From Bacillales bacterium (lineage in GTDB: Bacteria; Bacillota_I; Bacilli_A; RFN20; CAG-449), in contig JAQXGN010000037.1 in the NCBI GenBank assembly GCA_029006735.1, positions 9,894-73,893 on the forward strand: a stretch of DNA of 64,000 nucleotides, given 5' to 3'. The notes beneath the pieces were generated by a model. The model was given only the letters and a program-made list of their open reading frames with translations. It was not told the DNA's origin and ran no database searches. Shown here piece by piece: positions 5,171 through 55,346 of this stretch (the stretch's first letter is position 1; each line of letters opens with the position of its first letter). The translations under genes and the position numbers were made by a program.

Positions 5171-5181
5171 AGGAGAAATCT

Positions 5182-6662: not shown

Positions 6663-6712
6663 AATTTTTGATGAATAACTCCGTATTTAAAATATAAGGA
6701 GTTTTTTATTTT

Positions 6713-7598: not shown

Positions 7599-9692
7599 AT
7601 GAAATTAGTTATTGTCGAGTCTCCAACTAAATGTAAAACGATAAAAAAATATTTAGGTAGTGAATATAACGTTATGGCATCTTTAGGACATATTAGAGAT
7701 CTATCTACTTCTGGTAAGGGTGGATTAGGTGTAAATGTTTTAGATGATTTTAAACCTACATACATTAATTCAAAAGATAAATATAAAGTCATTCGTGATT
7801 TAGTTGACGCAACAAAAAAATCTGATGAAGTTTTTCTTGCAACCGACCCTGATCGTGAAGGGGAAGCAATTTCTTGGCATCTTGCAGAAGTTTTACATTT
7901 GCCAATTAAAACAACTAAGAGATTAGAATTTCATGAAATTACAAAACCGGCAATTAAAAAAGCTTTAGAAAACCCACGTACTATTGATATGTCTTTAGTA
8001 GAATCACAAGAAACACGAAGAATTATTGATCGTATTATGGGGTTTGAACTTTCTACATTATTAAAAAGAAAAATTGGATCTTCTTCTGGTGGTCGAGTCC
8101 AATCAGTTACATTAAAATTAATAACTGAAAGAGAAAAAGAAATTAAAGCCTTTGTCCCTGAAGAATATTGGTTAATTCAAGGTAATCTAGAAAAAAATAT
8201 TAATGTTAAATTGGAAAGTTATAAAGATCAACCTATTGGAACAATAAATAACGAAGAAGAAGCAGATAAGATTTTAAATTCTTTACCAAATACTTTTGTT
8301 GTTTCTGATATTGCAATACGTACTAGAAGAACTGAATCAAAACCACCATTTACTACTTCTACTCTTCAACAAGAAGCGTTTAATCGTCATAAATATTCAA
8401 CAAAGAAAACATCTTCAATCGCTCAAAAATTATATGAAGGTATTGATATTGGACAAGATACTATTGGTTTAATCACATATATGAGAACTGATTCAATTAG
8501 ATTATCCCCTGAATTTGTTAAGTCTGCGAATGACTATATTTTAAATAATTATGGAGAGCAATATCTTGGTAAGATTAATACACGTCAAGGGAAAGGATTA
8601 GTTCAAGATGCTCATGAAGCAATTAGACCTACTTCATTAGAATTGACACCAAAATCAATTAAGCAATACCTAACAAATGAACAATATAATTTATATAAAT
8701 TGATTTATTATCGTGCATTAGCATCCTTAATGTCACCAAAACTTGATGAAGTTACTAATGTAAGATTTGATGCTAATGATTATTCCTTTATCGCAAGTGG
8801 AGTTAGTAATATTTTTGATGGATATTCAAAATTATATGAATCTGCTTTTGATGATAATAAAAAAGATATGTTATTACCATCTTTAAATAAAGGTGATGAA
8901 TTGAAAGTTGTTGAAATTGATAAAGAACAAAAATTTACTACTGGACCTCAAAGATATACAGAAGCGAGAATTGTTAAGACTATGGAAGAATTAGGAATTG
9001 GTCGACCTTCAACATATGCTTCTACTATTTCTACTCTCTATGATCGTAAATACATCATTCAAGAAAAAGGGCAAATATACGCTACTGAGCAAGGAATTGA
9101 AACAGTTGATAAATTATGCGAGTTCTTTACTCCTTTTATGGATACCACTTATACTGCTAAGATGGAACAAAATTTAGATAGTATCGTTGAAGGGAATGAT
9201 TCTCGTTTAGGTCTATTGAAGAGTTTCTATAATGAGTTTGAACCTCTTTATGAGAAAGCTTTAGTAGATATGGAAAAAGTTGAACCAAAGCAAACTGGAG
9301 AATTATGTCCAAGATGTGGCAACCCATTAGTAGTAAAAAAATCTAAATATGGTGAATTTATTGGGTGCTTAAATTATCCAAAGTGTAATTATATTAAACC
9401 AAAAGAAAGTAAACCATTAGAAATATTAGAAAATCAATTGTGTCCAAAGTGTGGTAGCACATTAGTAAAGAGAAAATCTAAAAAAGGAGAGTTCTATGCT
9501 TGTAGTGCTTATCCAACATGTAAATATATATTGGGAAATGACGAACAAGAAGATAATAAGGAAGTTGTTTCTGATAGAACTTGTCCGAAGTGTGGAAAAA
9601 CATTATTGATTAAAAAAGGACGTAATAATAAAGGTGATTTTTACGCTTGTAGTGGTTATCCAAAGTGTAAATTTACAGAAACAATTAAATAA
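7599..9692 (+). CDS. topA: DNA topoisomerase I
   Basis: Toprim start MKLVIVESPTK, DPDREGEAI, and the active-site Tyr region GLITYMRTDS. There are three C-terminal C4 zinc ribbons (CPRCG..CNY, CPKCG..CKY, CPKCG..CKF). GGAGG precedes the ATG at 7599. Confidence 0.95.
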   Translation: MKLVIVESPTKCKTIKKYLGSEYNVMASLGHIRDLSTSGKGGLGVNVLDDFKPTYINSKDKYKVIRDLVDATKKSDEVFLATDPDREGEAISWHLAEVLHLPIKTTKRLEFHEITKPAIKKALENPRTIDMSLVESQETRRIIDRIMGFELSTLLKRKIGSSSGGRVQSVTLKLITEREKEIKAFVPEEYWLIQGNLEKNINVKLESYKDQPIGTINNEEEADKILNSLPNTFVVSDIAIRTRRTESKPPFTTSTLQQEAFNRHKYSTKKTSSIAQKLYEGIDIGQDTIGLITYMRTDSIRLSPEFVKSANDYILNNYGEQYLGKINTRQGKGLVQDAHEAIRPTSLELTPKSIKQYLTNEQYNLYKLIYYRALASLMSPKLDEVTNVRFDANDYSFIASGVSNIFDGYSKLYESAFDDNKKDMLLPSLNKGDELKVVEIDKEQKFTTGPQRYTEARIVKTMEELGIGRPSTYASTISTLYDRKYIIQEKGQIYATEQGIETVDKLCEFFTPFMDTTYTAKMEQNLDSIVEGNDSRLGLLKSFYNEFEPLYEKALVDMEKVEPKQTGELCPRCGNPLVVKKSKYGEFIGCLNYPKCNYIKPKESKPLEILENQLCPKCGSTLVKRKSKKGEFYACSAYPTCKYILGNDEQEDNKEVVSDRTCPKCGKTLLIKKGRNNKGDFYACSGYPKCKFTETIK

Positions 9693-9704
9693 AATAACAA
9701 ATAG

Positions 9705-9737
9705 TGGCCTCTGAAAGCGTTTTCAAGCCATTTTTTT
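9705..9737 (+). terminator. Probable intrinsic terminator after topA
   Basis: Imperfect hairpin tggcc..tgaaa / tttca..gcca, followed by T7. Confidence 0.5.
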
Positions 9738-9758
9738 GTATTTTTTGTTAATAATTTG

Positions 9759-9786
9759 TTGAATTGAATATTTTTTTTCATATAAT
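9759..9786 (+). promoter_or_regulatory. Candidate sigma-A promoter for the opp operon
   Basis: TTGAAT (9759-9764), a 16-nt spacer, then TATAAT (9781-9786). It would give a leader of about 220 nt. Confidence 0.45.
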
Positions 9787-10012
9787 AAAACTAATATTTA
9801 AAAAAGAAAAAATTCTCAATTAAATATTTGTTATAAAGTTGATGAGGGTAGAATATTATTCTTATAGAAAATATTCAGTCAACTTAGTGGATGAAAGATC
9901 AAAAAATTAAAGAATATCATAATTATAATAAAGTCTTTTTAGTATTTTTATTAATACTATATAAATTTTTGATTAATCCATCTTTTTACCCTTAATGTTA
10001 GGAGGAAAAAAT

Positions 10013-12421
10013 ATGAAAAAAACATTAAAGTACGTTTTAGCTTCCGCTATTTTAGTGGGAACACTTGGTTCTTTAGCTTCCTGCGGTTACAAGAGAGACT
10101 TCAGTGGTAATTACACTTATAACACATTTACAGCAGTTTCTCCATCTAACTGGAATGAGTTAACTTATCAAGATGCAAATGACACTCAAATTATGAGTTA
10201 TATTGGTAGTCCATTCTTCCAATATGATTATGAATTTGACAAGGATGGAGTTCCTGTTCCAGGAAAATTCGTAGTTAAATACGGTGCTGCTACAGCTTTA
10301 GAAGACGTAACAGTAGATTACGCAAAAGATGATAAATACGATGTACCAGATGATGCAACAAATGGTTATGCATATAAGATCACATTACGTAAAGACTTAA
10401 AATGGGATGACGGAACAGCAATTACTGCAGAAGACTTCGTCTACACAATGAAAGAACAATTAAACCCAGATTTCAAACACTATCGTGCAGATAGTTACTA
10501 TAATGGTTCTACAGTTATTCATAATGCAAGAGCATATGTTTACCAAGGATCAAGTGTTATGAATAATGCTGAATTAAAGCATGCTACTTGGGAAGAAGGT
10601 AAGAAAGATGCTGCATTAAAATTTGATTTAACAAATTCTACAATCGGTAGTTGGATTTGGGGAGACTATGCTGCTCCTGCAGAAGCAAAAGGACCAGCTT
10701 ATGTTTTAGTTGCATTGGGTTGTGAAGCAGAACAAGCAGCTATTGAAGCATTAGTTGGTAAATCACCAGCAGAAATTGAAGCAGATCCAGCATTAAAAGC
10801 AGCATTTGATGCAGTTGTTTCTTTCTGGAAATCTGAACCAGAAGAAGAATTATCATTATTTGCTTATCAACATGTTTATCCAGCTCTTGATTTCGATGCA
10901 GTTGGTATCTTCGCTGGTAAAAAAAGTAATGAATTATACCTTGTTTTAGATAATCCTCTTGAATTATTAAAAGAAGATGGTTCATTATCATATAAAGCAG
11001 CATACAACATGTCAAGTTTACCACTTGTTAAGAAAGATGTTTATGAAGCAAATAAAGTTGCACCAGTTCAAGGTTCAACATTATGGACATCAACATATAA
11101 CTCTTCAGTTAATTCAACAGCTTCTTGGGGTCCATATAAATTAACTTCATTCCAAGCAGGTAAAGAGTACATTCTTGAAAGAAATACTAATTGGTATGGT
11201 TATGGCTTAAAAGAAAATGATAAGAAATATCAAACATCTAGAATTGTATGTGAAACAATTAAGGAATGGAACTCAGCATGGTTAAAATTCCAAAATGGTG
11301 AACTCGATTCAATTGGTATCGATGTTTCTATTGCACAAGATTATAAGAACTCATCACAAGCTATCTTTACACCAGATGATTACGTTGGTTCAATGCAAAT
11401 TCAATCATCTGTTAGCGCATTAAAATCACGTGAAAAAGATGGCGTCAACAAAACAATCTTAGCTGATGTAAGATTTAGAAAAGCTATTTCATTATCAGTT
11501 AATAGAGATGAATACAACCAAACATGTACAACATCATCAAAAGCAGGCTACGGTTTATTCAACTCAATGCATTACTATGATGTTGAAAATGGTGGTGTTT
11601 ATAGAAACGAAGACGTTGCAAAGAAAGTATTATGTGATGTTTATGGCGTTGATGTTTCAAAATATGATTCATTAGATGCAGCTGCAGCAGCAGTTACTGG
11701 TTATGATCCAGCTCAAGCTAAAGAATTAGTTACAGCTGCATATAACGATGCTCTTGAAGCAGGTACAATTAAAGATACAGATAAAGTTGTTATTACATTT
11801 GGTTCAGGTGCAGATAACGAAGCAGTAAGACGTGTATTCGATTATTTAACAAATGCATTAAAAGCAATGGTAGTTGGTACACCTCTTGCAGGAAAATTAG
11901 AAACAGAATTTGAAGATCACGGTGCAAAATGGGCAGATGACTTCCGTAGTGGCGCATATGACATTTGTACAGGTGGTTGGCAAGGTGCTGCATGGGATCC
12001 AGGTTACTTCTTACTTGCATACTTATCACCAGATTATATGTATTCAGTAGCTTGGGAAACAGATAAAGTACAAATGACATATACAGTTTTAGGCCAAGAA
12101 TATACAATGTCTTTAATTGAATGGTATAATTGCTTAAACGGTGTAGCAGGCGCAGCTCATAACTGGGCAGAAGGACAAGTTGCAAACGATGTCAGATTAG
12201 GTATTATCGCTGCTCTTGAAAAAGAAATCTTAAGTGTTTACTACACAGTTCCTCTACAAAACTATTTCTCAGCTTCATTAAAATCATATAAATCAGATTA
12301 TATTTCACGTGACTATAACACATTTATGGCTTACGGCGGAATCGAATACTTAACATATGCATATGATGATGCAGCATGGGAAGAATATTGTAAAAATAAT
12401 GTTCTTGATTATAAGGCATAA
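10013..12421 (+). CDS. oppA: Oligopeptide ABC transporter substrate-binding lipoprotein, unusually long (802 aa)
   Basis: Signal peptide with lipobox LASC|G. Family-5 SBP-like body (DLKWDDGTAITAEDFVYT, NTNWYG). It is the first gene of an oppBCDF cluster. GGAGG precedes the ATG at 10013. Confidence 0.8.
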   Translation: MKKTLKYVLASAILVGTLGSLASCGYKRDFSGNYTYNTFTAVSPSNWNELTYQDANDTQIMSYIGSPFFQYDYEFDKDGVPVPGKFVVKYGAATALEDVTVDYAKDDKYDVPDDATNGYAYKITLRKDLKWDDGTAITAEDFVYTMKEQLNPDFKHYRADSYYNGSTVIHNARAYVYQGSSVMNNAELKHATWEEGKKDAALKFDLTNSTIGSWIWGDYAAPAEAKGPAYVLVALGCEAEQAAIEALVGKSPAEIEADPALKAAFDAVVSFWKSEPEEELSLFAYQHVYPALDFDAVGIFAGKKSNELYLVLDNPLELLKEDGSLSYKAAYNMSSLPLVKKDVYEANKVAPVQGSTLWTSTYNSSVNSTASWGPYKLTSFQAGKEYILERNTNWYGYGLKENDKKYQTSRIVCETIKEWNSAWLKFQNGELDSIGIDVSIAQDYKNSSQAIFTPDDYVGSMQIQSSVSALKSREKDGVNKTILADVRFRKAISLSVNRDEYNQTCTTSSKAGYGLFNSMHYYDVENGGVYRNEDVAKKVLCDVYGVDVSKYDSLDAAAAAVTGYDPAQAKELVTAAYNDALEAGTIKDTDKVVITFGSGADNEAVRRVFDYLTNALKAMVVGTPLAGKLETEFEDHGAKWADDFRSGAYDICTGGWQGAAWDPGYFLLAYLSPDYMYSVAWETDKVQMTYTVLGQEYTMSLIEWYNCLNGVAGAAHNWAEGQVANDVRLGIIAALEKEILSVYYTVPLQNYFSASLKSYKSDYISRDYNTFMAYGGIEYLTYAYDDAAWEEYCKNNVLDYKA

Positions 12422-12450
12422 TTAAAATAGTTATTAATACATAAAATGAT

Positions 12451-12490
12451 AAATGCGAGATAATGTTTTATACTTGTCTCGCATTTTATC
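12451..12490 (+). terminator. Hairpin (attenuator/partial terminator) between oppA and oppB
   Basis: 10-bp stem aaatgcgaga (12451-12460) / tctcgcattt (12477-12486). The U-tract is short. Confidence 0.5.
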
Positions 12491-12526
12491 GCAATTATAA
12501 TATAAGTAGTAAGGAGGGTGATTAAT

Positions 12527-13486
12527 ATGTACATGTTCAAATATATATTAAAAAGATTAGGTCTTATGATCATGACATTTTTAATAATATTTTTAATTTC
12601 GTTCGTGTTAATTAAAAGATTACCAATTGTTATTAATGTAACTATTGGTCAAGATAAGGAAATTATTGAAGCTACATTAATAGCAAGGGGGTATTATGAC
12701 CCTATCCCTGTTCAATTAATTAATTATATTAAAAGAATATTTCAAGGTGATTTTGGCGTTGGTGTCAATTTACCTGAATATAGAAACAAACCAGTATGGG
12801 ATGTTTTCGTTGAAAAACTCCCACCAACAGTATTAATTAATGTTTATTCTACTATTTTCTCAGTTCCACTAGGTATTGCACTTGGTATTTTTGCTGCGTT
12901 AAAAAAGAATAAATGGCAAGATCATGTAATTAGTACAGGCGTCATGGTTTTTATTTCAGTTCCAAGTATTGTTACAGCGTTTTTGGTTCAATACATTTTC
13001 TGTTTTAAGTTAAAATGGTTCCCATTAACGATGAAAGCAGGATTTGATTATTTCTCGCCATCAATGTTTAGATCAATGATGCCAGCAGTTATTGCTATGT
13101 CATTTGGATCTATTGCTGGATATGCTAGATTTACTCGTGCTGAACTTACTGAAGTTTTAACGAGTGATTTTATGCTGCTTGCAAGAACTAAAGGTTTAAC
13201 AAGAGGTCAAGCAACTTTACATCACGCATTAAAGAATGCGATGGTTCCAATTTTCCCATCAATTGTAGGTGAATTTATTTCAGTTTTGTCAGGTTCTCTT
13301 ATTATTGAAAAGATTTACTCTATTCCAGGTGTTGGAGGATTATATCTTGATTCAATTAGTTACCAAGATTATGACTTCTTTATGATGTTATCTTGTTTCT
13401 ATATTTTGATTGGACTTGTTGCTGCTATTGTTATTGATTTAAGTTATGGATTTATTGATCCACGTATTAGAATGGGGGCTAAGTAA
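12527..13486 (+). CDS. oppB: Oligopeptide ABC transporter permease OppB
   Basis: YILKRLG N-terminus and the BPD_transp_1 EAA-like loop (DFMLLARTKGLTRGQ). AAGGAGGG lies 8 nt before the ATG at 12527. Confidence 0.88.
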   Translation: MYMFKYILKRLGLMIMTFLIIFLISFVLIKRLPIVINVTIGQDKEIIEATLIARGYYDPIPVQLINYIKRIFQGDFGVGVNLPEYRNKPVWDVFVEKLPPTVLINVYSTIFSVPLGIALGIFAALKKNKWQDHVISTGVMVFISVPSIVTAFLVQYIFCFKLKWFPLTMKAGFDYFSPSMFRSMMPAVIAMSFGSIAGYARFTRAELTEVLTSDFMLLARTKGLTRGQATLHHALKNAMVPIFPSIVGEFISVLSGSLIIEKIYSIPGVGGLYLDSISYQDYDFFMMLSCFYILIGLVAAIVIDLSYGFIDPRIRMGAK

Positions 13487-13488
13487 TT

Positions 13489-15042
13489 ATGAAACCAAGT
13501 GAATTAAATATGCCAAAAGAAAAATTTGAATTTGCTAGTTCTAATGAAAACCTTCATGATAAAGAATTAGTTACAAAACCAGTATCTTATTTTAAAGATG
13601 CATGGAATAGATTCAAAAAGAATAAAGCTTCTATTGCTGCAACTATTGTTATTGGTATTTTAGCATTGTATGCAATTATTGCTCCTATTATTTCTCCATA
13701 TTCAGTAGCTTATAAAGATGCTTATTATACGTTTACTGAGCCAATGATTTTTGGCGGAAATCGACAAAAAAAGGGAAATGAAGCTACTTTCCTTTCCGAT
13801 TATGCAATTTCTTTAGAAACAAATAGAGATGTAATTGTTAAAGGAAAATATGATTCATATATAACAGAAGATGCATACAAAAAGAAAATTAGAATGTATG
13901 AATATAAAATCGATACATATTATAGCGTCGGTGTTGTCTATATGACTTTACCAGCAGAAAAATATCAAGCTATTCAAGAATATCAAGATGCAAATAATGT
14001 TCAAATTATTTATCCTTGGACAGATATGAGTAAAAATAAAATCCAATTTGGAGAAATTCCACCTCAAATTGAAACGGATGGTAATATTTGGTATCAATTA
14101 AAGATGTCAAATGGTAAACCTGTTGCAGATGTAACTTATGATACAAATGGAAAACCGGTTTATACTGATGTTTATGCTCTTTATGGAAGTATTGAAGATG
14201 GATACACTAGTAAGATGAGATATGAGGGCGAAGGTAATTATCAATATGCTTATGCTACACCAGTTCAAAATGGTAATGCATATAAAGTGCGTATTGATTA
14301 TTACAATTATTATCGATATATTCATGCAGATGAACGAATTGATAAACCATTCTTCTTATTTGGAACTACTAATAGTGGACAAGATATCTTTACTTGCTTA
14401 GCAAGTGGTGCTAGATTTAGTTTCTTCTTAGCAATTTCGGTTGCTACTGTTAATATGATTGTTGGCGCTATTTATGGTGCTATCGAAGGTTATTATGGTG
14501 GTAAGATTGATATTATTATGGAAAGAATTGTTGAAATCTTAAATGCAGTTCCTTTCATGATTGTTATTACCTTATTGAAATATAATATGGAAGGTACATC
14601 GCAAGTATTGATTTTATTTATCGCGTTCTTCTTAACCGGTTGGATTGGTATGGCGGGAAGAACCAGAATGCAGTTCTATCGATTTAAGAATCAAGAATAT
14701 GTTCTTGCGGCAAGAACTTTAGGTGCTTCAGACTTTAGAATTATGTTTAAGCATATTTTCCCTAACTCATTAGGTACTTTAATTACAAGTTCAGTCTTAG
14801 TTATTCCAGGAATGATTTTCTCAGAAACAAGCTTGAGTTACTTAGGTATTATCAATTTGAATTCTGGTAATTTAACTAGTGTTGGTACATTGCTTGCTAA
14901 TGGTCAACCATATTTAGTTACATATCCACATATCATTTTATTCCCATCAATCTATATTTGTTTGTTGATGTTGAGTTTCAACTTGTTTGGTAATGGATTA
15001 CGTGATGCATTTAACCCATCACTTAGAGGTGCGGAGGATTAG
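13489..15042 (+). CDS. oppC: Oligopeptide ABC transporter permease OppC with an enlarged extracellular loop
   Basis: OppC_N-like start (FKDAWNRFKKNKASI), LFGTTNSGQDIF motif, and EAA loop (YVLAARTLGAS). It is 517 aa, whereas I recall about 300 aa as typical. Confidence 0.85.
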   Translation: MKPSELNMPKEKFEFASSNENLHDKELVTKPVSYFKDAWNRFKKNKASIAATIVIGILALYAIIAPIISPYSVAYKDAYYTFTEPMIFGGNRQKKGNEATFLSDYAISLETNRDVIVKGKYDSYITEDAYKKKIRMYEYKIDTYYSVGVVYMTLPAEKYQAIQEYQDANNVQIIYPWTDMSKNKIQFGEIPPQIETDGNIWYQLKMSNGKPVADVTYDTNGKPVYTDVYALYGSIEDGYTSKMRYEGEGNYQYAYATPVQNGNAYKVRIDYYNYYRYIHADERIDKPFFLFGTTNSGQDIFTCLASGARFSFFLAISVATVNMIVGAIYGAIEGYYGGKIDIIMERIVEILNAVPFMIVITLLKYNMEGTSQVLILFIAFFLTGWIGMAGRTRMQFYRFKNQEYVLAARTLGASDFRIMFKHIFPNSLGTLITSSVLVIPGMIFSETSLSYLGIINLNSGNLTSVGTLLANGQPYLVTYPHIILFPSIYICLLMLSFNLFGNGLRDAFNPSLRGAED

Positions 15043-15045
15043 TTT

Positions 15046-17196
15046 ATGGAAAAGAAATTAGAAGTAAAGAATTTACAAGTATCCTTTAGAACTCAAGGTG
15101 GTACAGTTAAAGCAGTAAGAAATATTTCTTTCGATTTATATAAAGGTGAAACACTTGCAATCGTTGGTGAATCTGGTTCTGGTAAATCAGTAACTAGTAA
15201 AGCTATTATTGGTATTCTTGCAGGTAACTCAATTGTTGAAGGTGGAGAAATTTTATATGATGGACAAGATTTATTAAAAATTTCAGAAGATGATTTCCAC
15301 AAAATTCGTGGTGATAAAATCTCAATGATTTTCCAAGATCCTCTTTCTAGTTTGAATCCAATTGTTAGAATTGGTAAACAACTTACTGAAGCGATGATCT
15401 TGAATGGTAGAATTCGTCAAAAAAGCGCAAGAAAAGAGTTTAATGGTAAATTAAAATTATTAAATGAAAGCTTAGACGCAATTGATGCAAATAAAAATAA
15501 TAACAAAACTCAATGTAAAACTTTTGATAGTTTCTGTATTGAAAGTACTAAAATAGAACAAGTCTATAATGATGCACATGACAATGCTGTTGCAGCAAAA
15601 GAATTATGTGAAGAAATTGCTTTCTTATTATCAAAGAAACAAAAAATTGATGTTAAGAAGAGTTTAAATAGTATTTTAAAATTATTTAAAAATTCAGTTA
15701 ATACTTATGTTGTTTCTTTAGATGATGTTTATTTAGGTTATGTTGATAGATTTAATGGTTTTATTAATGAAGGTAAAAAGGCTAATCAAAATGATGTTAT
15801 CGCTTTATTAAATGAAGTTGAAACTTATTTAGGTGAATGCATTAAAAAGGAAAAACCAAATTACTTTAGATTAGGTTATTATTTATTAAATAATCCTGAT
15901 TTTGATTATACTACAATGCCAGTTGATGAATTAGATAAGATGACAAAAAAATATCTTGATGATAATTTTATGCTTAATTTCATCGAAATTGGTAGTAAAG
16001 GTGTTCAATATTCACATGATAAATCTATTGAAAATAAGAAGAAGTTATTAGATCAACTTCAAAGTTTGTTAGATATTTTAAATGCTCCAGGAGATTTAGA
16101 TGTCAAGAGTTTGAAAAAACAATTAAAAGTTGTTAGACAAGATTTATTAGTTTCTATTGATTATTTAAATATTCATAAAAGAAGTGTTGAATATTCTTTC
16201 TATAACTCATTCAACCATGAAGTTGAAAGATTTATCGGTGGTAAAAAGACTAATCCAGGTGCAGAAAGAAGATATAATAGAAGCTTAGCAAAATATAATA
16301 AACTATGTGAGAGCGGTAAAAATCCAACATGGAAAGTTGTTCCACCAACATTAGTTGATTTAGATTTAGCTAGAAGTAACATGGTTAAAATTGCAAATAG
16401 CTTAGTTAACAGTATTAATAATGATATTAGTATTGATAGTGAATTTGATTGTAAGAAAGAGATGATTGATTTAGTTGATTTCTTAAAAGAACAAGCTTCA
16501 AGAGTAGTTTATAAAGTATCTATGAAGATTGCAAAAGCAAGAGCACTTGAATTAATGAAGGAAGTAGGTATTCCTGAACCTGCAATCAGATATAAACAAT
16601 ATCCATTTGAATTCTCAGGTGGTATGAGACAAAGAATTGTTATTGCTATTGCATTAAGTGCTAACCCTGATATTTTGATTTGTGATGAACCTACAACTGC
16701 ACTTGACGTTACAATTCAATCACAAATTCTTGAATTAATTAATAAAATTAAAAAAGAAAGAAATTTATCAGTTATCTTTATTACTCACGACTTAGGTGTT
16801 GTTGCTAATATGGCAGACAGAATTGCTGTTATGTATGCAGGTAAGATTGTTGAATATGGTTCAGCAAATGATATTTTCTATGATCCTCGCCATCCATATA
16901 CTTGGGCTTTATTATCAAGTATGCCTGATTTGGATACTAAAGAAAAACTCGAAGCAATTCCTGGTACTCCACCAAATATGATTTATCCTCCAAAAGGAGA
17001 TGCATTTGCAGAAAGAAATAAATACGCTTTAAAAATAGATTTTGAAGAGGAACCACCTCTATTTGAAGTTAGTGATACTCACTATGCTGCAACTTGGTTA
17101 TTACATCCTAATGCACCAAAAGTTGAAGTTCCAAAGGTTATTCAAGAGCGTGTTAATAGAATGAAAAAGAAGGTGAGTGATGAAGATGGAAAATAG
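15046..17196 (+). CDS. oppD: Oligopeptide ABC transporter ATPase OppD carrying a large internal insertion
   Basis: Walker A GESGSGKS (aa 41-48), Q-loop MIFQDP (aa 94-99), signature FSGGMRQR (aa 523-530), Walker B ILICDEP, and an oligopeptide C-terminal domain (RHPYTWALL). Confidence 0.88.
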   Translation: MEKKLEVKNLQVSFRTQGGTVKAVRNISFDLYKGETLAIVGESGSGKSVTSKAIIGILAGNSIVEGGEILYDGQDLLKISEDDFHKIRGDKISMIFQDPLSSLNPIVRIGKQLTEAMILNGRIRQKSARKEFNGKLKLLNESLDAIDANKNNNKTQCKTFDSFCIESTKIEQVYNDAHDNAVAAKELCEEIAFLLSKKQKIDVKKSLNSILKLFKNSVNTYVVSLDDVYLGYVDRFNGFINEGKKANQNDVIALLNEVETYLGECIKKEKPNYFRLGYYLLNNPDFDYTTMPVDELDKMTKKYLDDNFMLNFIEIGSKGVQYSHDKSIENKKKLLDQLQSLLDILNAPGDLDVKSLKKQLKVVRQDLLVSIDYLNIHKRSVEYSFYNSFNHEVERFIGGKKTNPGAERRYNRSLAKYNKLCESGKNPTWKVVPPTLVDLDLARSNMVKIANSLVNSINNDISIDSEFDCKKEMIDLVDFLKEQASRVVYKVSMKIAKARALELMKEVGIPEPAIRYKQYPFEFSGGMRQRIVIAIALSANPDILICDEPTTALDVTIQSQILELINKIKKERNLSVIFITHDLGVVANMADRIAVMYAGKIVEYGSANDIFYDPRHPYTWALLSSMPDLDTKEKLEAIPGTPPNMIYPPKGDAFAERNKYALKIDFEEEPPLFEVSDTHYAATWLLHPNAPKVEVPKVIQERVNRMKKKVSDEDGK

Positions 17197-18469
17197 AGAA
17201 GTATTATTAAGAGTTGATCATCTTGAACAATATTTTAAGATGGGTAAACGAGCATTAAAAGCAGTTGATGATGTCTCATTTGATATCTATAAAGGCGAAG
17301 TTCTAGGTTTAGTTGGTGAATCTGGATGTGGTAAAACCACAACTGGCCGTTCAATCATTCGATTATATGATATTACTGGTGGTAGTGTATATTTTGATGG
17401 TAAACGTATTGCTGCAGGTATCGGTAAATATAAAAGAGATATAAAAGCAGCTAAAGCAGATTTTAAGGCAAAGGTAAAAGCATTAACAGATGATTTTAAT
17501 GCAAAAGTAAATCAAGATCCTTTATCAAAAGAACAACTTACAGAAGAATATAAAGCTAATGTCAATAAACTTGAAGAAGAACTCCATAGCGTTATTTCAT
17601 ATAATGTAGAAGAAATCAAAAAAGCAAAATATGATCATAAAAATTGTGATAAAGAATTTGCTAAATATGAAGTCGAAAAAGTTAAAGATAAATATGCAAA
17701 GTTATTAGAAGAAGAAACTGATGAAAGAAAAAAAGAAGAATTACTTTTAAAGCAAAAAGAAGAAGTTCGTTTAGCAAAAAAAGCACGTATTACTGCTAAT
17801 ATCCAAATGATTTTCCAAGATCCAATTGCGTCTCTTGACCCACGTATGACAGTTCATGATATCATCGCTGAAGGTTTAATTATTCGTGGTGAAAGAGATA
17901 AAGAAAAAATTGATAACGAAGTATATCGTGTACTTGAATTAGTTGGTTTAGTTAAAGAACACGCTTCTAGATATCCACATGAATTCTCTGGTGGACAACG
18001 TCAAAGAATTGGTATCGCACGTGCTGTCATTTTAAATCCACAACTTATTATTGCTGATGAACCTGTATCGGCATTAGATGTTTCTATTCAAGCTCAAGTT
18101 ATTAATTTACTTAATGAATTACGTGATAAGATGGGATTAACAACTTTATTTATCGCTCATGATTTATCTGTTGTTAAGTATTTATCTGATCGTATTGCGG
18201 TTATGTATTTTGGTAAGATTGTTGAACTTGCTTCAAGTGATGAATTATTTGCTCATCCACTTCATCCATATACAAAGAGTTTATTATCTGCTATCCCTTT
18301 ACCAGATCCTCACTTTGAAAAATTAAGAAAGAGAGTTACATATAATCCTCTTGCTGCTCATGATTATTCTAAAGAAGGACCTACAATGAGAGAAGTATGT
18401 AAAGGACACTTTGTCTATTGTAATAGCGAAGAAGAAGCTAATTATCTTAAAGAGATTAATGGTAAATAG
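17186..18469 (+). CDS. oppF: Oligopeptide ABC transporter ATPase OppF with a Lys/Glu-rich insertion
   Basis: Walker [23 protein letters not shown], and LIIADEP. The start is ambiguous (GTG 17177, ATG 17180 or ATG 17186). I chose 17186 for its spacing to AAGGTGA. Confidence 0.85.
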
Positions 18470-36995: not shown

Positions 36996-37071
36996 TGGTG
37001 GGTACTGAGAGGATCGAACTCCCGACCTTCTGTACGTCAAACAGATGCTCTCCCAGCTGAGCTAAATACCC
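36996..37071 (-). tRNA. tRNA-Val (anticodon GAC), CCA encoded
   Basis: Hand-folded 76-nt cloverleaf. Acceptor GGGTATT/AGTACCC, D-arm GCTC/GAGC, anticodon stem TCTGT/ACAGA with loop TTGACGT, T-arm GGGAG-TTCGATC-CTCTC, discriminator A, and 3' CCA. Confidence 0.9.
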
Positions 37072-37255: not shown

Positions 37256-38887
37256 ATGAAATTGCCACCTATTTTTATTTCTTTAGCAGATCTTTTTGAG
37301 AAAAATGGATTTGATTTATATATGGTTGGAGGAACAACTAGAGATTTTCTTTTAGGAAAAGAATTAGTTGATTTTGATTTTGCTACAAATGCCACTATCG
37401 ATGAAATGAAATGCTTTATGGAAATAAGTGAAAACTTTAAATCAATTGGTAGTATGACTTGTAAATATCAAGGATCAAAGATTGATATTACAACCTTAAG
37501 AAAAGAAAAAGAATACATTGATTATCGTCATCCTAGTATTGTTGAATTTGTTAATGATCCAGAAATTGATAGTGAAAGAAGAGATTTAACGATTAATGCA
37601 TTATATTTAGATAATAAAGGAAATCTATATGATTTTCATGGTGGATTAAATGATTTACATAATCATATTATCAAAATGATAAATGATCCTTTAGTTAGGT
37701 TTAATGAAGATCCATTAAGGTTATTAAGGGTAATCCGCTTTTCACTTATTTTAGATTTTGTTATTGAAGATAGTCTTGAACAAATTATTAAAGAAAATGT
37801 CGGTTTATTGAAAAAAATTAATTATATCAAAAGCCGAGAAGAGATCGATAAAATGATGAAATATAATGAAAATAAGGCAAGGAATTTATTAAGAAAATAT
37901 CATGTTGATCAAGTATTGCCAATCGTATTAAATAGCAAAAATCCATTGAACATTATTGATTTACATTGTGATACATTGACTAGAAATTTAAAAGATGATG
38001 AAAATTTTCTTAACTCTAATCTCCATATTGATTTAAATAAATTATACAAAGGCGAATACTTGTTGCAATGCTTCGCGGTCTTTATTTATTTAAAAGAGGG
38101 AGAATCTAGTTTTAAAAAAGCTAATGAATATATTGATAAATTTGATTATTTAATGAGTGAATATTCTCATTTGATTTCTCCAATTAGATCGTATAAAGAA
38201 TTAATTGATAATAAGTCTAAGGGTAAACTTTCTGCTTTGTTATCATTAGAAGAAGGAGAAATATTAGAAGGAAATATTGATAATATTGATTATTTTTATT
38301 CGCGTGGAGTAAGAATGATGACTTTAACTTGGAATTTTGAGAATTCTTTAGCATATCCCAATGATGTAATGCATAATCAAATTCAAAATGGTGGATTAAA
38401 AGAGTTAGGAATAAAAGCAATAAAGAGAATGAATGAATTAGGTATTATTATTGATGTATCACATTTAAATGATGATGGATTCTACGATGTAATTAAATAT
38501 TCGACTAAACCAATTGTTGCTTCACATAGTAATGCTCGTGAAGTACAAAATCGGGTGAGAAATCTAACTGATGATATGATTTTATTACTTCACAAAAATA
38601 AAGGGGTTATGGGAATTAATTATTGCCCTGATTTTGTTTCTAATAATAAAGGGAATCAAATTAAAGATTTAGTAAAGCATATCAAACATATAAAAGATTT
38701 AGGTTGTATTGATAATATTGCTTTAGGCTCTGACTTTGATGGAATACCAACTCCAAATGGATTAAATGATGCATCTAAATTACCAGAATTAATTAATGAA
38801 TTGAAAAATGCCGGATTTAGTACAAATGAAATTGATAAAATAACACATAAGAATTTCTTAAGAGTATTAAAAAATGTTTGCAAATAG
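37256..38887 (+). CDS. Fusion protein: class-II CCA-adding/poly(A)-polymerase-family nucleotidyltransferase head+neck (aa 1 to about 225) joined to a peptidase-M19 (renal-type) dipeptidase domain (about aa 230 to 543)
   Basis: Nucleotidyltransferase motifs GGTTRDFLLGKELVDFDF, RRDLTINA, and EDPLRLLRVIRF. M19 metal-ligand contexts DLHCDT, DVSH, ASHSNAR, and GSDFDG. It is a single uninterrupted ORF. Confidence 0.8.
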   Translation: MKLPPIFISLADLFEKNGFDLYMVGGTTRDFLLGKELVDFDFATNATIDEMKCFMEISENFKSIGSMTCKYQGSKIDITTLRKEKEYIDYRHPSIVEFVNDPEIDSERRDLTINALYLDNKGNLYDFHGGLNDLHNHIIKMINDPLVRFNEDPLRLLRVIRFSLILDFVIEDSLEQIIKENVGLLKKINYIKSREEIDKMMKYNENKARNLLRKYHVDQVLPIVLNSKNPLNIIDLHCDTLTRNLKDDENFLNSNLHIDLNKLYKGEYLLQCFAVFIYLKEGESSFKKANEYIDKFDYLMSEYSHLISPIRSYKELIDNKSKGKLSALLSLEEGEILEGNIDNIDYFYSRGVRMMTLTWNFENSLAYPNDVMHNQIQNGGLKELGIKAIKRMNELGIIIDVSHLNDDGFYDVIKYSTKPIVASHSNAREVQNRVRNLTDDMILLLHKNKGVMGINYCPDFVSNNKGNQIKDLVKHIKHIKDLGCIDNIALGSDFDGIPTPNGLNDASKLPELINELKNAGFSTNEIDKITHKNFLRVLKNVCK

Positions 38888-43917: not shown

Positions 43918-44038
43918 TATTTTCTCCTAGTCGTTAATAGTATAAGTCATTATTAAAAAAAAATAAATGAAAACATTTATTGTTTATGCTGCATATAAAT
44001 AAATGAACAATATTTTTTGTTCGTGAGAAAGGTGAAAT

Positions 44039-44506
44039 ATGATTTATCAAAACGGATGTGGGTGTTGTAATAACACTCCTATGTGTATCCCTTCTAACCT
44101 TGATTGTGGTATTAATGTGACGTTAACTGCTTCTGATTACGTTGCAAGAGTGTGTAATACAATAACTTACACAGTTACAGTTACAAATAATTCAGCTGAA
44201 ACTATGACAGATGCAATATTAACATTACCTATTGCAAATGTTTTAGCTCTTTTACCAAATACAATTACTGTCAATGGCGCACCATATGAAGATACTACTT
44301 TAAATCACGTTGCTTTGGGAACAATTAATCCAAATGAAACTGTGACTGTCACATATCAAACAACTATTATGACATGTCAAAGATTTATTAAGCATCGTGC
44401 TAAAGTGGTGTTTGGATGCTGTCAATGCTTTACCAAGAAGATGATTTGTGTCTTATCCAATGAAAACACAGTTCAAGTATGTTGCTGTTGCGGGAATAAT
44501 AACTAA
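44039..44506 (+). CDS. Cysteine-rich (15 of 155 residues) protein with a DUF11-like beta-sandwich core; no signal peptide
   Basis: AAAGGTGA precedes the ATG. Cys at positions 7, 9, 10, 16, 23, 39 and 113, 127, 128, 130, 137, 148-151. The core NTITYTVTVTNNS...LGTINPNETVTVTYQT resembles the DUF11/TIGR01451 repeat. It has its own terminator. Confidence 0.75.
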   Translation: MIYQNGCGCCNNTPMCIPSNLDCGINVTLTASDYVARVCNTITYTVTVTNNSAETMTDAILTLPIANVLALLPNTITVNGAPYEDTTLNHVALGTINPNETVTVTYQTTIMTCQRFIKHRAKVVFGCCQCFTKKMICVLSNENTVQVCCCCGNNN

Positions 44507-44518
44507 ATGAAGCAAAAT

Positions 44519-44541
44519 GGAGAGTAATACTCTCCTTTTTC
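44519..44541 (+). terminator. Intrinsic terminator after the Cys-rich gene
   Basis: Stem ggagag / ctctcc with loop taata, followed by T5. Confidence 0.7.
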
Positions 44542-44600: not shown

Positions 44601-45722
44601 ATGAAAAAAGCATTTGCAATAATAGGCAATATTATTTGGATTGTCTTTGGGGGATTAATCTGGAGTATCGTTTTAGATATTTTTGGTGTTGTTTTAATGA
44701 TTAGTTTAATTGGAATTCCTTGTGGGTTACAATTGTTTAAAATGTCAGGTTTTGTTCTTTGGCCATTTGGGAAAGTAGTCAAAACAACAAAGACTAATGG
44801 ATTTAAAATTTTCTTAAATGTTTTGTGGGCGATATTCTTTGGTTGGGAATTTGCATTAAGTTTTGCTATTACGGGTTGTGTATTTTTTATCACAATTATT
44901 GGTATTCCATTTAGTAAAATTTATTTCCGTTTAGCTTCATTTATTATTTTCCCATTAGGTAGATCTTTTGCAAAAAAAGATGCTTCTAATAAAGTAGCAG
45001 AATCTAAAGAAAAAACAAACAGTCAAGGTGATGCTGCATTAATTGAATCAAAAGATAATAGTAGTGATTATGCAAACTGTTCTATTGAAGAATTCTGCAA
45101 AAAACTTGATGAAAAATATGATAGCTTATTAATTGAAAAATTGCGTTCAAGTAAGGAAAAATTGGATTTAGGATTGATTAAAGAAGAGGAGTATAACTTA
45201 GAAAGAGAAAAGGTAAAAAACGAATTTTATGAGAAAAAAGATGAAGAATATAAATCGTTTATTAATAATGTTTATCTCGATACAGTTAATCAATTAAAGG
45301 ATATTTTTGATAATCCTAAGAAGTATGATGAAAATAGAGTCTCTTTCCTTTTAAATAAATTAAAAGAATTAACATCCTATTGTGAAACAATTAATGATGA
45401 TTTAGTTTTATTTAAAGATATGAAAGATAATTACTCTGAATTACAAAGATATAAAGAAATACAAAAAAATATAGAAAAAGCTTTATCGAAGGGATATTCC
45501 GTTATGGAAAAAAGTCAATTTGATAATTTAATTAATGAATTGGCAAAAGGAAATGAAAAATTTGATTTTTCTAATTGTATAGAAGAATACAAAGCAAGAT
45601 ATGCTTTGATGGAAGAAAAAGTTAAAAAGAATAAAAAGCAAATAATTATTATTGCTAGTGTAGTTGGTGGAGTTTTAATCACTGCGGGTGTAGTAATAGT
45701 TTTATTAGCATTATTTTTGTAA
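44601..45722 (+). CDS. YccF (DUF307) membrane domain fused to a long coiled-coil region and a C-terminal TM anchor
   Basis: Two YccF-type repeats (GNIIWIVFGG...IGIPCGLQLFKMSGFVLWPFGK and LNVLWAIFFGW...IGIPFSKIYFRLASFIIFPLGR). About 215 aa of Lys/Glu-rich sequence follows, then the terminal helix IIIIASVVGGVLITAGVVIVLLALFL. Confidence 0.7.
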   Translation: MKKAFAIIGNIIWIVFGGLIWSIVLDIFGVVLMISLIGIPCGLQLFKMSGFVLWPFGKVVKTTKTNGFKIFLNVLWAIFFGWEFALSFAITGCVFFITIIGIPFSKIYFRLASFIIFPLGRSFAKKDASNKVAESKEKTNSQGDAALIESKDNSSDYANCSIEEFCKKLDEKYDSLLIEKLRSSKEKLDLGLIKEEEYNLEREKVKNEFYEKKDEEYKSFINNVYLDTVNQLKDIFDNPKKYDENRVSFLLNKLKELTSYCETINDDLVLFKDMKDNYSELQRYKEIQKNIEKALSKGYSVMEKSQFDNLINELAKGNEKFDFSNCIEEYKARYALMEEKVKKNKKQIIIIASVVGGVLITAGVVIVLLALFL

Positions 45723-45753: not shown

Positions 45754-46917
45754 ATGGAGTTTTTTCTTTCAATGGTTATGGTAGTAATTATTTTTATTAT
45801 TTATTCAGCAATTATTGTTGTACCATCTATTTTCATAATTAAAAAAGCGAGTTATTTAGAAAATAATCATTCATTTAGTTTGAATCAAATAATCAATAAA
45901 ACTTTCGGTGGATATGCAGGTATTTCTTTTGTTGCGATATATGGAGTAATTTTTTTATCAACAATTTTTAGTGATCTTGCTTCTTATCTTTCTAAAGCTA
46001 TAAATATAAATATATATATTTATGCTTTATTAATTAAATCTATTATTTGGTTGACATTAATTGTTGGTTTAATTTTTTTATTAATAGGATGTATTTTGAA
46101 TAAAAGGAAATTAAAAATAGCTTCATTAATTTTAATATTTGTCTATATTGGTTTAAATTTGTCTGATGTGACCTTTAATATATGTAATTATTTGTTACTT
46201 GTTTCAAACTCAAATCCAATATATGGAAGCTATTATGTTTCATGGGTAAATATTATCTTCTTGGGGAAAGATTTTATTTTATATTTAACTGAATTAGTTC
46301 TCTATATTTTTATATTTATTGAAGCAATCAAGGTTATTAATAATAAACAATTTAATGTTAAACGCTTAAAAGTTTTACCACCATTGATATTATTATTGGA
46401 GGTGATATTTGGATTATTCGAATTATTAATGCCATTTCTTGGCTCTACTGCCGCCTCTTCATCATTATATTTTGCAGAAAAAGAAATAGGAATGATTATT
46501 CTAGTGATTTTAATTTTCAATTGCTTAAATAAATCTATTTTAGCGAGAGAATATCCAAAGGAAGAAATAGGAACTACTTTTACTGGACTTAGTTTTGCTT
46601 ATGAATGTAAAGGATTGGATTTTAATCTAATCAAGAAAAGAAACGAAGTAATAGTTGAAGATATTGTTAATACTGATAATGTTGTTGAAGAAGTTAAAGA
46701 AATTCCTGTTGTGGAAAAAGATAATAAAATTATCGAACCAATTCTAGAAAATAAAGAAGAAAAAGTAGTTAATGATATTCACCCAACAAATCCAGTTATA
46801 AATGAAAAGTTCGATTTAAAGAAAGAACTAATAAAAATAAAAGAATTACATGATTTAGAGTTAATTGATGACGAAGAATATAAATTATTAAAAGAAAGAT
46901 TATTAAATAAAAAATAA
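45754..46917 (+). CDS. Polytopic membrane protein with acidic linker and C-terminal SHOCT-like motif
   Basis: About 8 predicted TM helices, then LIKIKELHDLELIDDEEYKLLKERLLNKK, which resembles a SHOCT short C-terminal domain. GGAGGA lies 7 nt before the ATG. Confidence 0.6.
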   Translation: MEFFLSMVMVVIIFIIYSAIIVVPSIFIIKKASYLENNHSFSLNQIINKTFGGYAGISFVAIYGVIFLSTIFSDLASYLSKAININIYIYALLIKSIIWLTLIVGLIFLLIGCILNKRKLKIASLILIFVYIGLNLSDVTFNICNYLLLVSNSNPIYGSYYVSWVNIIFLGKDFILYLTELVLYIFIFIEAIKVINNKQFNVKRLKVLPPLILLLEVIFGLFELLMPFLGSTAASSSLYFAEKEIGMIILVILIFNCLNKSILAREYPKEEIGTTFTGLSFAYECKGLDFNLIKKRNEVIVEDIVNTDNVVEEVKEIPVVEKDNKIIEPILENKEEKVVNDIHPTNPVINEKFDLKKELIKIKELHDLELIDDEEYKLLKERLLNKK

Positions 46918-47419: not shown

Positions 47420-47763
47420 CTTTGATCTGGATAATTGCTGGCGAAATTTATTTCGTTAGAGGAAAGTCCATGCTCGCACCATCTGTGATGATGGTAGTGT
47501 TTGTGCCAAGAGAAAAAATAATCTTGGGTAGGTGGGAGCACCTAACGGCAGAAAGAAACCTAAGTCGTAAGATATGGTCTATTTCTTGAAAGTGCCACAG
47601 TGACGTAGTTTATATGAAAGTATAAAGTGGAACGCGGTAAACCCCTCAAGCGAGAAACCTAAATTTGGTAAGGGAAGTCTAAGTGAAGAAACGAATTTAA
47701 CTTGACATACTTCGGTATAGATAAATAATTATCCTCGACAAAACATGGCTTACAGGATCAAAG
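47420..47763 (+). ncRNA. rnpB: RNase P RNA (type B, Firmicutes-like)
   Basis: P4 strands GAGGAAAGTCCATGCTCGCAC and ACAAAACATGGCTTACAG. P1 pairing ctttgatc-tg (47420-47429) with caggatcaaag (47753-47763). P2 pairing ggataatt with aattatcc. Length is about 344 nt. Confidence 0.9.
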
Positions 47764-52752: not shown

Positions 52753-53016
52753 ATGATTCAACAAATTAAAGTCGCATCACATTCAAATGTTTCTAATGTT
52801 GCAGGAGCAATATCGAATATAATGCGAGAACAGAATTATTTAGAAATTTCAATAGTAGGAGCAGGTTCATTAAATCAAGCAATAAAAGCAATTGCAATTG
52901 CAAGAGGATTTCTTACTCCTTCAGGAATAGAAATCTGTATTATTCCTAGTTTTAAAGAAATTCTAATTGATGGGAAACAGAAAACAGCAATCAAACTTCG
53001 TGTTGAGAAAAAATAA
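52753..53016 (+). CDS. spoVS: Stage V sporulation protein S
   Basis: 87 aa. It is collinear with my recollection of B. subtilis SpoVS (VAGA...GAGSLNQAIKAIAIARGF..PSG...IP.F....IDG...TAIKL.VE). Confidence 0.88.
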   Translation: MIQQIKVASHSNVSNVAGAISNIMREQNYLEISIVGAGSLNQAIKAIAIARGFLTPSGIEICIIPSFKEILIDGKQKTAIKLRVEKK

Positions 53017-54479: not shown

Positions 54480-54783
54480 GGAAGTTAGAGATAGATTAGA
54501 TCAATTTATTAACGATTTCCTTAATGTTAAAGAAGTAAAACAATTCTTGTTAATTAAGGAAGAGATTTCTCATTCGGAAGAATTAACTTTGTTAAAGGAG
54601 AAATTAAAGCTGAGTCAAAAAGATATGGCGATTTCTATTGGGAAAAAAGATTATAACGAAAAAAAGGATAATTATTTTCAAACAAAAAAAGAATATGAAA
54701 ATCATCCATTAATTGTCAATTATAATGTCTTATTAGATGAAGTAAATTACTTACTTACTGAATTAAAAAATAAACTTTCTTAA
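54472..54783 (+). CDS. ymcA: YmcA/YlbF-family protein
   Basis: Small helical protein in the miaB-ymcA-cotE-mutS position seen in Bacillus. The start is ATG 54472 or GTG 54460. Confidence 0.6.
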   Translation: MDKEVRDRLDQFINDFLNVKEVKQFLLIKEEISHSEELTLLKEKLKLSQKDMAISIGKKDYNEKKDNYFQTKKEYENHPLIVNYNVLLDEVNYLLTELKNKLS

Positions 54784-54824
54784 ATTGAACTCCTATTTCA
54801 TATATTGAGATAGGAGGTTTTTTT

Positions 54825-55346
54825 ATGTATAGAGATATTATTGCCAAAACCTTAGTAGGCAAAGGGAAATTAAATCAATTGATAGAAAAAAAGATTAAAT
54901 TAGAAGAATTTGTATCCAAATTATTAGGATGTTGGGTTATTAATTTATCTTATGAAACAAAAAAAGAAAAAGATGATGTAATAATTGAAGGATCATTTGA
55001 TATTCAATTATGGTATGCATTTGAAAACGATAGAAAAAGCCAGGTTTATGTGGAAAAAGTAGATTTTAAAGAGACTATAAAAATGTTTTATCGTGATTAC
55101 CGAATATATGATGAAGAATCATTTATTAAGGTATATGTAAACACATATCCAAAGTGTTCAAAGATGGAAATAGTTGATGGAGAAGTTAATCTAGTAATTG
55201 AAGGAGTATATTATATTGATTGTTTTCAAGATGCACTTTTACAAGTTAACTGTCTAGATGAATATGTTGAAGATGTTTCTTTAGATGAAGAAATTGTGAT
55301 GAATGTTAATCCAAATTATATTGAGACGAACAAGCAAAAAGAATAA
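54825..55346 (+). CDS. cotE: Spore coat morphogenetic protein CotE homologue
   Basis: 173 aa. It is collinear with my recollection of B. subtilis CotE (YR-II-K--VGKG, GCWVIN, EG-FDIQLWYA, acidic C-terminus) and occupies the ymcA-cotE-mutS position. Confidence 0.75.
   Translation: MYRDIIAKTLVGKGKLNQLIEKKIKLEEFVSKLLGCWVINLSYETKKEKDDVIIEGSFDIQLWYAFENDRKSQVYVEKVDFKETIKMFYRDYRIYDEESFIKVYVNTYPKCSKMEIVDGEVNLVIEGVYYIDCFQDALLQVNCLDEYVEDVSLDEEIVMNVNPNYIETNKQKE

Follow-up and report, generated by a model that had tools for sequence, protein, structure and literature searches.

We analysed a stretch of 64,000 nucleotides (nt) from a Bacillales bacterium (positions 9,894 to 73,893 of contig JAQXGN010000037.1), called here the window, and in particular a gene at 44039-44506 that encodes a cysteine-rich protein of 155 amino acids (aa). 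An earlier note on the same DNA had proposed that this protein is a disulfide-crosslinked building block of the spore surface. The gene and its signals, together with the parts of its product, are as follows.

43972-43975, plus strand: -35-like AACA (the mACm of the sigma-K consensus), 16 nt before CATA, as read from the sequence
43992-44002, plus strand: -10-like CATATAAATAA, putatively of the mother-cell sigma (E/K) type; the sole exact copy in the window
44003-44024, plus strand: inverted repeat directly after the -10-like element, from folding and from paired changes in its arms
44030-44035, plus strand: Shine-Dalgarno sequence AGGTGA; GGTGA precedes the ATG in all orthologues
44039-44506, plus strand: coding sequence of the Cys-rich DUF11/CLIPPER single-domain protein, an ATG-to-stop frame of 155 aa
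44039-44104, plus strand: N-terminal tail, residues 1-22 (Cys 7, 9, 10 and 16), modelled with low confidence or as disordered
44105-44491, plus strand: predicted beta-sandwich, residues 23-151, with the invariant Cys and the QVCxCC end, from the model and the alignment
44519-44541, plus strand: intrinsic terminator, a 7-base-pair stem with four G-C pairs and a 3-nt loop, then TTTTTCTTT

A family of cysteine-rich DUF11 proteins

The protein contains 15 Cys (residues 7, 9, 10, 16, 23, 39, 113, 127, 128, 130, 137 and 148-151), which include the runs CGCC, CCQC and CCCC, and residues 40-112 contain none. A recount of the open reading frame (ORF) and of its Cys returned the same frame, the same 15 positions and the same Cys-free middle as the earlier note. 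Cys makes up 9.7 % of the protein, versus 1.27 % of the 49 other ORFs of the window (G+C content 29.1 %), the second Cys-richest of which reaches 2.9 %. The resemblance to DUF11/TIGR01451 that the note had described also passes the curated cut-offs of the respective hidden Markov models (HMMs): PF01345 (DUF11/CLIPPER) scored 33.0 bits over residues 25-114 (cut-off 24.6), and TIGR01451 scored 27.4 bits over residues 34-80 (cut-off 24). The Pfam scan of the protein found no other domain, so that, among the HMMs suggested in the note for a search, DUF11 was matched and DUF3992 and CotY/Z were not.

We scanned the hydropathy of the 21 aligned members of the family described below and found neither an N-terminal hydrophobic region nor a charged n-region in any of them, in agreement with the earlier statement that there is no signal peptide or transmembrane helix. 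A 19-residue stretch at residues 60-78 of the window protein reaches a hydropathy of 1.69 in this simple scan, but it contains prolines and is modelled as beta strands. No sortase motif or anchoring domain was found in the protein.

A search of 5.8 billion proteins returned 14 relatives, 13 of which carry a precomputed PF01345 match; two more members came from contigs linked to cotE and two from a scan for a DNA motif. The Cys-rich family comprises 21 aligned members and two further loci. The aligned members are 150-181 aa long, contain 8.6-16.2 % Cys and are 37-61 % identical to the window protein, and all sources are metagenomes or metagenome-assembled genomes labelled only Bacilli or Bacillales. 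Scanning the genomes of the GTDB species representatives with an 8-sequence alignment gave one true orthologue only, and in the public assembly collection 204 blocks index one of the orthologues. Among 1.84 billion representatives a profile search picked out 2852 DUF11 proteins, nearly all of them giant and multi-repeat; a few more small, full-length relatives were among them.

Six Cys (C23, C39, C128, C148, C150 and C151) are invariant in the 21 members, and C130 is kept in at least 90 % of them. The C-terminal QVCxCC motif is likewise invariant, as are the non-Cys residues G24, N50, N79, R115 and S140. The invariance of six Cys at 37-61 % identity indicates that the richness in Cys is not due to chance; conservation of the Cys positions was one of the checks that the earlier note had proposed. 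The stretch ahead of the invariant Cys-Gly (C23-G24 in the window protein) behaves differently: its length varies from ~19 to ~45 residues across the family, and it carries at least one Cys in each member, the register of which is not fixed. Two members (P0110 and the protein at 682-1215 of locus L103) have a C-terminal extension rich in Pro, Thr and Glu (for example, PTTPVTPDPTPEPTPEPTTPEE) beyond the CCCC motif. Low-complexity linkers of this type are typical of surface-exposed or glycosylated regions.

Predicted fold and loss of the isopeptide bond

AlphaFold2, run on the family alignment, gave an all-beta model in which eleven strands span residues 25-148 (mean predicted local distance difference test (pLDDT) 78; predicted template modelling (TM) score 0.72). 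Disorder is confined to residues 1-13 and 152-155, and the N-terminal tail has a pLDDT of 33 for residues 1-10 and of 63 for residues 11-20. The same domain includes residues 116-148, modelled as four of its strands (pLDDT 75-86). The C-terminal Cys (127-151) thus lie in predicted strands, which makes their cluster a part of the sandwich and not a tail. The earlier note had pictured a Cys-free sandwich with Cys-bearing termini; this description holds for the N-terminal tail and fails for the C-terminal cluster.

The top fold match of the model in the PDB was 9IFR, a recent crystal structure of the CLIPPER domain (E 3e-6), followed by generic immunoglobulin (Ig)-like domains, BslA (TM score 0.58-0.69) and the Gram-positive pilins SpaD and EbpB, while a single-sequence search of the PDB with the window protein gave noise only (E above 3). 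Fibrillar adhesins use CLIPPER domains as CnaA-like stalk modules, which a Lys-Asn isopeptide bond stabilises (PMC12617251). The bond of 9IFR joins K715 to N806, with D748 as the catalytic residue. In the profile alignment K715 falls on L29 of the window protein, and the column is occupied by Leu, Ile, Val or Ser in all 21 members. The family therefore cannot make the isopeptide bond and stands outside the isopeptide-bonded CLIPPER domains. The last strand retains its Ser-Asn (S140 is invariant), which is, as far as the alignment tells, a relic of the isopeptide site. With the Lys lost, any covalent stabilisation needs another source, for which the Cys are the sole candidates in the sequence. 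As judged from alignment and model, the family, a set of unannotated 'hypothetical proteins', is a divergent, single-domain, isopeptide-less and Cys-loaded form of DUF11/CLIPPER.

We compared the family with other DUF11/CLIPPER proteins. The whole 155-aa protein, including its C-terminal strands, matches one repeat unit; in the giant DUF11 proteins, the alignment of several repeats extends as far as profile positions 141-146. Unlike the DUF11/CLIPPER proteins of several thousand residues, with their tandem repeats, the Cys-rich proteins have one domain, no signal peptide or sorting signal, and 9-16 % Cys. The 155-aa protein also has none of the marks of a fibrillar adhesin (signal peptide, tandem repeats, adhesive and sorting domains). 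In reference genomes the strongest matches to the family profile were giant DUF11 proteins of spore-forming Paenibacillus species. Two Paenibacillus matches (L002 and L004) were rejected as orthologues, being giant multi-repeat DUF11 proteins of 3693 aa and at least 1569 aa, respectively. The former (Paenibacillus tuaregi, 3147-14228 of the locus) consists almost entirely of DUF11 repeats of ~140-150 aa each, has a Lys at the isopeptide position, begins MAFIQRYVTNQTG and shows no obvious signal peptide. The giant Paenibacillus proteins might themselves be spore-associated.

The fold might suggest a protein of the vegetative cell surface or matrix, released by lysis or non-classically and acting as a single-domain adhesin or as a BslA-like hydrophobin coat. 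CLIPPER domains are typical of fibrillar adhesins (PMC12617251), and BslA is among the better fold matches. The likeness is, however, that of a generic Ig-like fold at 10-11 % sequence identity. BslA and adhesins are exported by the Sec pathway, whereas a signal peptide, a sortase motif and an anchoring domain were not found here, and nor was a promoter of the sigma-A type (see below). We consider such a vegetative role very unlikely.

The model also brings to mind the Ena pili, in which a flexible N-terminal connector with a double-Cys motif precedes a small beta-sandwich and crosslinks the subunits, as described in PMC12357932. Ena1 and Ena2 (DUF3992) and the Cys-rich protein share a Cys-bearing flexible N-terminus ahead of a beta-sandwich, and it is conceivable that the protein is an Ena-like subunit of a spore appendage or fibre, the N-terminal Cys tail of which forms disulfides with the sandwich or CCCC of the next subunit. 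Besides this parallel in architecture (disordered Cys connector plus compact beta-sandwich in the AlphaFold2 model), the presence of DUF11 in ribbon appendage proteins of C. taeniosporum and of pilins among the fold matches speak for a fibre. The fold family, however, is another one: there were no Ena structures among the top 50 fold matches, and the Ena families DUF3992 and DUF4183 were unmatched in Pfam at E up to 10. In addition, the N-terminal Cys are poorly conserved in number and spacing, with no motif in a conserved register, and neither an ena-like gene cluster nor a nearby gene for an anchor, a tip or a collagen-like partner was seen, the neighbours being housekeeping genes. A fibre of the Ena kind, joined by way of the N-terminal Cys tails, would be an appealing special case, yet nothing supports it directly and we give it little credence.

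Neighbourhood, promoter and spore genes

At every fetched locus the Cys-rich gene lies between a divergent exonuclease-like gene (~240 aa, downstream of ponA-recU) and gpsB (DivIVA domain), which is followed by rnpB, pgsA, cinA and recA. This order is kept down to 37-40 % protein identity, so the gene has been passed on vertically and is not a mobile one. There is no paralogue of it in the window. In the window alone, two membrane-protein genes (44601-45722 and 45754-46917, both on the plus strand) separate the Cys-rich gene from gpsB; one encodes a YccF domain and a long coiled-coil-like region, and the other has no Pfam match. Since all orthologous loci run straight to gpsB, these two genes are a lineage-specific insertion.

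The composition of the protein, rich in Thr (24 residues), Ser and Cys (15), might by itself recall the precursor of a ribosomally synthesised and post-translationally modified peptide (RiPP), such as a lanthipeptide. We regard this as hardly credible: the protein has 155 aa and is confidently predicted to be folded over nearly its entire length, and the orthologous loci, where the neighbours are recU, ponA, gpsB, pgsA, cinA and recA, contain no genes for modification, transport or immunity.

The same chromosomal slot is of interest in B. subtilis. CotD of that species is a small (75 aa), His-rich and sigma-K-dependent protein with Cys near both ends. Its gene, a coat gene, is the one directly before ypsA, which in turn neighbours gpsB (PMC6459960). 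The earlier note had placed cotD between a yprB exonuclease-like gene and ypsA-gpsB-rnpB as the same neighbourhood; its cotD-ypsA part is right, whereas the exonuclease-like gene here matches RNase_T in several orthologues (the window copy has no Pfam match) and is not demonstrably YprB. The gene studied here, upstream of gpsB-rnpB, thus occupies the slot of cotD, but its product has no Pfam CotD match and ypsA is absent from its neighbourhood. To judge by the sequences, the equivalence is one of position only and could be a coincidence.

We examined the 121-nt intergenic region upstream of the gene (43918-44038). It contains no sigma-70-type site, and no TTGACA-like hexamer was found at the proper distance from the -10-like element, in line with the earlier remark that there is no obvious sigma-A pair. 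Instead, AC at 43973-43974 is followed, after a gap of 17 nt, by CATATAAATAA at 43992-44002. The nine aligned upstream regions of orthologues, which comprise eight distinct sequences, all share an invariant CATATA[A/T]AT, and in eight of the nine CATATA[A/T]ATAA, its C included, is invariant, L024 keeping CATATATAT. In the regions measured, the element precedes the ATG by 44-52 nt, and the sequence 5' of it diverges; a gap of 17 nt separates AC from CATA in six of the eight scored regions (two of the six being identical). The conserved C favours a CATA-type promoter (sigma-E or sigma-K) over a sigma-A TATAAT box, and the element comes equally close to the sigma-E-type CATAxAxT. On this sequence evidence we call the putative promoter mother-cell type, sigma-K-like and possibly sigma-E.

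Elements of the same kind precede cotE in four members of the lineage, at a similar distance from the ATG. In the window, CATATATT lies ~30 nt before the cotE ATG (upstream region 54780-54824), and L023, L024 and L025 have CATATATT, CATATAGT or CATATAAATAA; the cotE of L025 carries an 11-mer identical to the -10-like element of the Cys-rich gene.

A second block of the intergenic region, TAGTATA[A/G] at 43938-43946, is conserved in seven orthologous regions. Its minus strand has TATACT, with the ATG of the divergent exonuclease gene ~22 nt downstream, and the block is probably the sigma-A -10 box of that gene. The conserved block AAATAAATGA could be the corresponding -35, overlapping the putative -35 of the Cys-rich gene.

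The inverted repeat after the -10-like element folds into a hairpin in each of the eight upstream regions folded (seven distinct sequences), with energies of -5.0 to -9.6 kcal/mol. Its arms co-vary (TGAACA/TGTTCA and TGAGCA/TGCTCA, with GAGCTCA/TGAGCTT in L024). These results come from folding each sequence separately and comparing the arms by hand, which replaced a consensus folding on a MAFFT alignment (-1.9 kcal/mol) in which two sequences were misaligned. By its sequence and position the repeat may be a hairpin that stabilises the mRNA at its 5' terminus, or it may act as an operator overlapping the start site.

At the other end of the gene, the terminator stem (44519-44535) is followed by a T run, and all nine orthologous loci checked have a G+C-rich hairpin no further than ~60 nt from the stop codon, with a T-rich run after it in most. 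The gene is thus monocistronic throughout, as the earlier note had said of the window copy, and the Shine-Dalgarno sequence and clean terminator that it had listed are those given above. Within the fetched loci, the 17-nt motif of promoter plus hairpin occurs solely upstream of the Cys-rich gene. When metagenome contigs were scanned with it, at least 120 loci matched, among which L069 and L103 encode family members; the remaining matches are due to chance, so that a regulon cannot be defined from the motif scan.

The lineage carries genes for spore proteins. A cotE orthologue (54825-55346, plus strand; Pfam CotE, 99.7 bits) lies 10 kilobases (kb) downstream of the Cys-rich gene and directly upstream of mutS-mutL, as in B. 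subtilis, and SpoVS is encoded at 52753-53016. In three genomes (the window, L023 and L024) cotE shares a contig with a syntenic gene of the Cys-rich family, and the uncultured group contains ~60 clusters of CotE relatives at 42-59 % identity, which indicates that the lineage maintains cotE. The organism is probably an endospore former, as judged from CotE and SpoVS in the window and from the linkage to cotE in L023 and L024. A more distant CotE locus, L026, was set aside, as it is not syntenic and its adjacent 150-aa ORF is unrelated to the Cys-rich family. In L024 (GCA_031556235.1), ~7 kb (10521-17246) are inserted between cotE and mutS, with an ABC transporter, four small ORFs (61-120 aa), a Peptidase_M55 and two radical-SAM/Fer4_12 proteins; this insert looks like a cluster for a radical-SAM-modified peptide (RiPP).

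Promoter and lineage bear also on another explanation, in which the protein is a cytoplasmic, metallothionein-like metal-binding protein or redox buffer with no spore role, and CCCC, CCxC and CxCC chelate Zn, Cu or Fe. Cytoplasmic Cys are normally reduced and free to bind metal; the protein has no recognisable export signal, and its clustered Cys motifs are conserved. Yet many of these Cys are predicted inside beta strands and not in loops that could wrap a metal, and the 21 members have no conserved His or Asp partners for the Cys clusters. The conserved promoter is not sigma-A-like and resembles the upstream element of cotE, the family is restricted to a CotE-bearing lineage, and its fold family is known from surface proteins (PMC12617251). 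We hold a metal or redox function to be quite improbable.

Three other features of the window were noted. Directly after gpsB, as in B. subtilis, lies a class B RNase P RNA (47423-47757, plus strand; 292 bits). A lone tRNA gene (36999-37071, minus strand) stands between surE and a fusion gene (37256-38887, plus strand), the product of which joins an N-terminal PolyA_pol domain (CCA-adding enzyme type) to a C-terminal Peptidase_M19 domain (renal dipeptidase type). This fusion (543-552 aa) is unusual and conserved in the lineage, as it is found also at 1276-2934 of L011 and 1218-2876 of L015.

A candidate protein of the spore envelope

[quoted passage not shown] Five features lead to it: an Ig-like fold without an export signal, the conserved Cys, the loss of the isopeptide bond, a promoter like that of cotE, and a lineage that carries CotE. 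In particular, an extracellular-type fold that lacks an export signal is as expected of proteins that are assembled on spores within the mother cell. Its single-gene organisation and constant position, and the parallel to the cotD slot, speak for this view as well. The case is coherent but circumstantial.

From these features we infer when and where the gene would be expressed, where its product would reside and how it would be crosslinked. The gene would be transcribed alone, late and in the mother cell, from its CATA-type (sigma-K-like, possibly sigma-E) promoter, and the protein would be made in the mother-cell cytoplasm without a signal peptide. It would fold into one CLIPPER-type Ig-like sandwich, without the isopeptide bond of its adhesin relatives, and be deposited onto the developing spore. 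Disulfides would then lock it to itself or to its neighbours, the partners being the Cys of the fold (C23, C39, C128, C130, C148, C150 and C151), variable Cys at the surface and those of the flexible N-terminal tail. Oxidising conditions at mother-cell lysis, or exposure to air, may trigger the formation of the disulfides.

Several known systems resemble parts of this scheme. DUF11 domains occur in appendage proteins of C. taeniosporum, in Crd spore proteins of the B. cereus group and in F-Anchor-3 (PMC5749712, PMC12357932); the former paper gives predicted sigma-K promoters for the DUF11 appendage genes of C. taeniosporum. CRD1/CRD2 and their relatives, CrdA/B/C and F-Anchor-3 (Clostridium aceticum) are made by the mother cell and end up on the surface of the spore, as the scheme would have it for the Cys-rich protein. 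Unlike it, they are larger, multi-repeat or multi-domain proteins, compared here by the shared domain only, and no Cys-rich character is described for them in the passages of the two papers considered here.

Likewise, CotY/ExsY of Bacillus, CdeC/CdeM of C. difficile and CsxA/CsxC of C. sporogenes are Cys-rich proteins that self-assemble into layers with cooperative disulfides. The absence of a signal peptide, the high Cys content and a proposed disulfide-stabilised assembly are shared, but the folds and families are unrelated, and those proteins have been located to spores by experiment whereas the window protein is known from sequence. A further parallel is chlamydial OmcB, which disulfides crosslink into the rigid shell of the elementary body, the dormant and infectious form. 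DUF11 in an outer membrane complex protein of Chlamydia is mentioned in PMC5749712. OmcB, likened here by description only, is both DUF11-containing and Cys-rich, but it is a Sec-exported protein of ~60 kDa with a periplasmic or surface location in a Gram-negative envelope.

Some observations weigh against a role in the spore envelope. Runs of Cys are also typical of metal-binding proteins. The protein has no Pfam match to CotD, CotY/Z, Ena or other spore families (E up to 10), and no match to any spore-coat family in the NCBIfam scan. As the lineage is uncultured, we infer its ability to sporulate from cotE and spoVS alone. The spacing of the putative promoter is not uniform, with AC and CATA closer together in L018 (16 nt) and L021 (15 nt) and no AC in L024, and the conserved block around AC could belong to the promoter of the divergent gene. 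Finally, against the sigma-K consensus mACm-N16-CATA-N3-TA, as quoted in PMC5749712, the region has AACA-N16-CATA, with its distal TA out of place by one nt (CATATAAATA). The sigma-K-like arrangement AC-N17-CATA of the earlier note therefore exists, although its fit to the consensus needs a shift of register by one nt and sigma-E is an equally close choice.

The earlier note had gone on to suggest a new type of subunit. This is not established, because both DUF11 in spore appendage or anchor proteins (PMC5749712, PMC12357932) and Cys-rich crosslinked shells were already known. The proposed function would join an existing class of Cys-rich spore-surface proteins, in which a DUF11 domain without its isopeptide bond and loaded with Cys would be the new element. 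A bolder form of the proposal is that this CLIPPER fold, encoded in the slot of cotD, is a self-polymerising subunit of the spore surface, linked head-to-tail or in a lattice through its N-terminal tail and QVCxCC motif. We think this rather unlikely; if true, it would be an ultra-stable solution for a spore surface distinct from Ena (DUF3992/DUF4183), from CotY/ExsY and from SPOCS (CsxA/CdeC).

Neither outcome would overturn anything established, and if the protein were instead a cytoplasmic thiol protein it would be of minor importance. Hardly anything is known of the molecular make-up of spore envelopes in uncultured gut Firmicutes, and the envelope proteins are notorious for their lack of conservation from one lineage to the next. 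If the Cys-rich protein is a true component of the coat or exosporium, it would provide a marker of sporulation for a widespread group of uncultured Bacilli and, being small (155 aa), a candidate for redox-switchable, self-assembling protein materials. It would also exemplify how evolution can bring an adhesin domain to the spore surface and substitute disulfides for the isopeptide bond.

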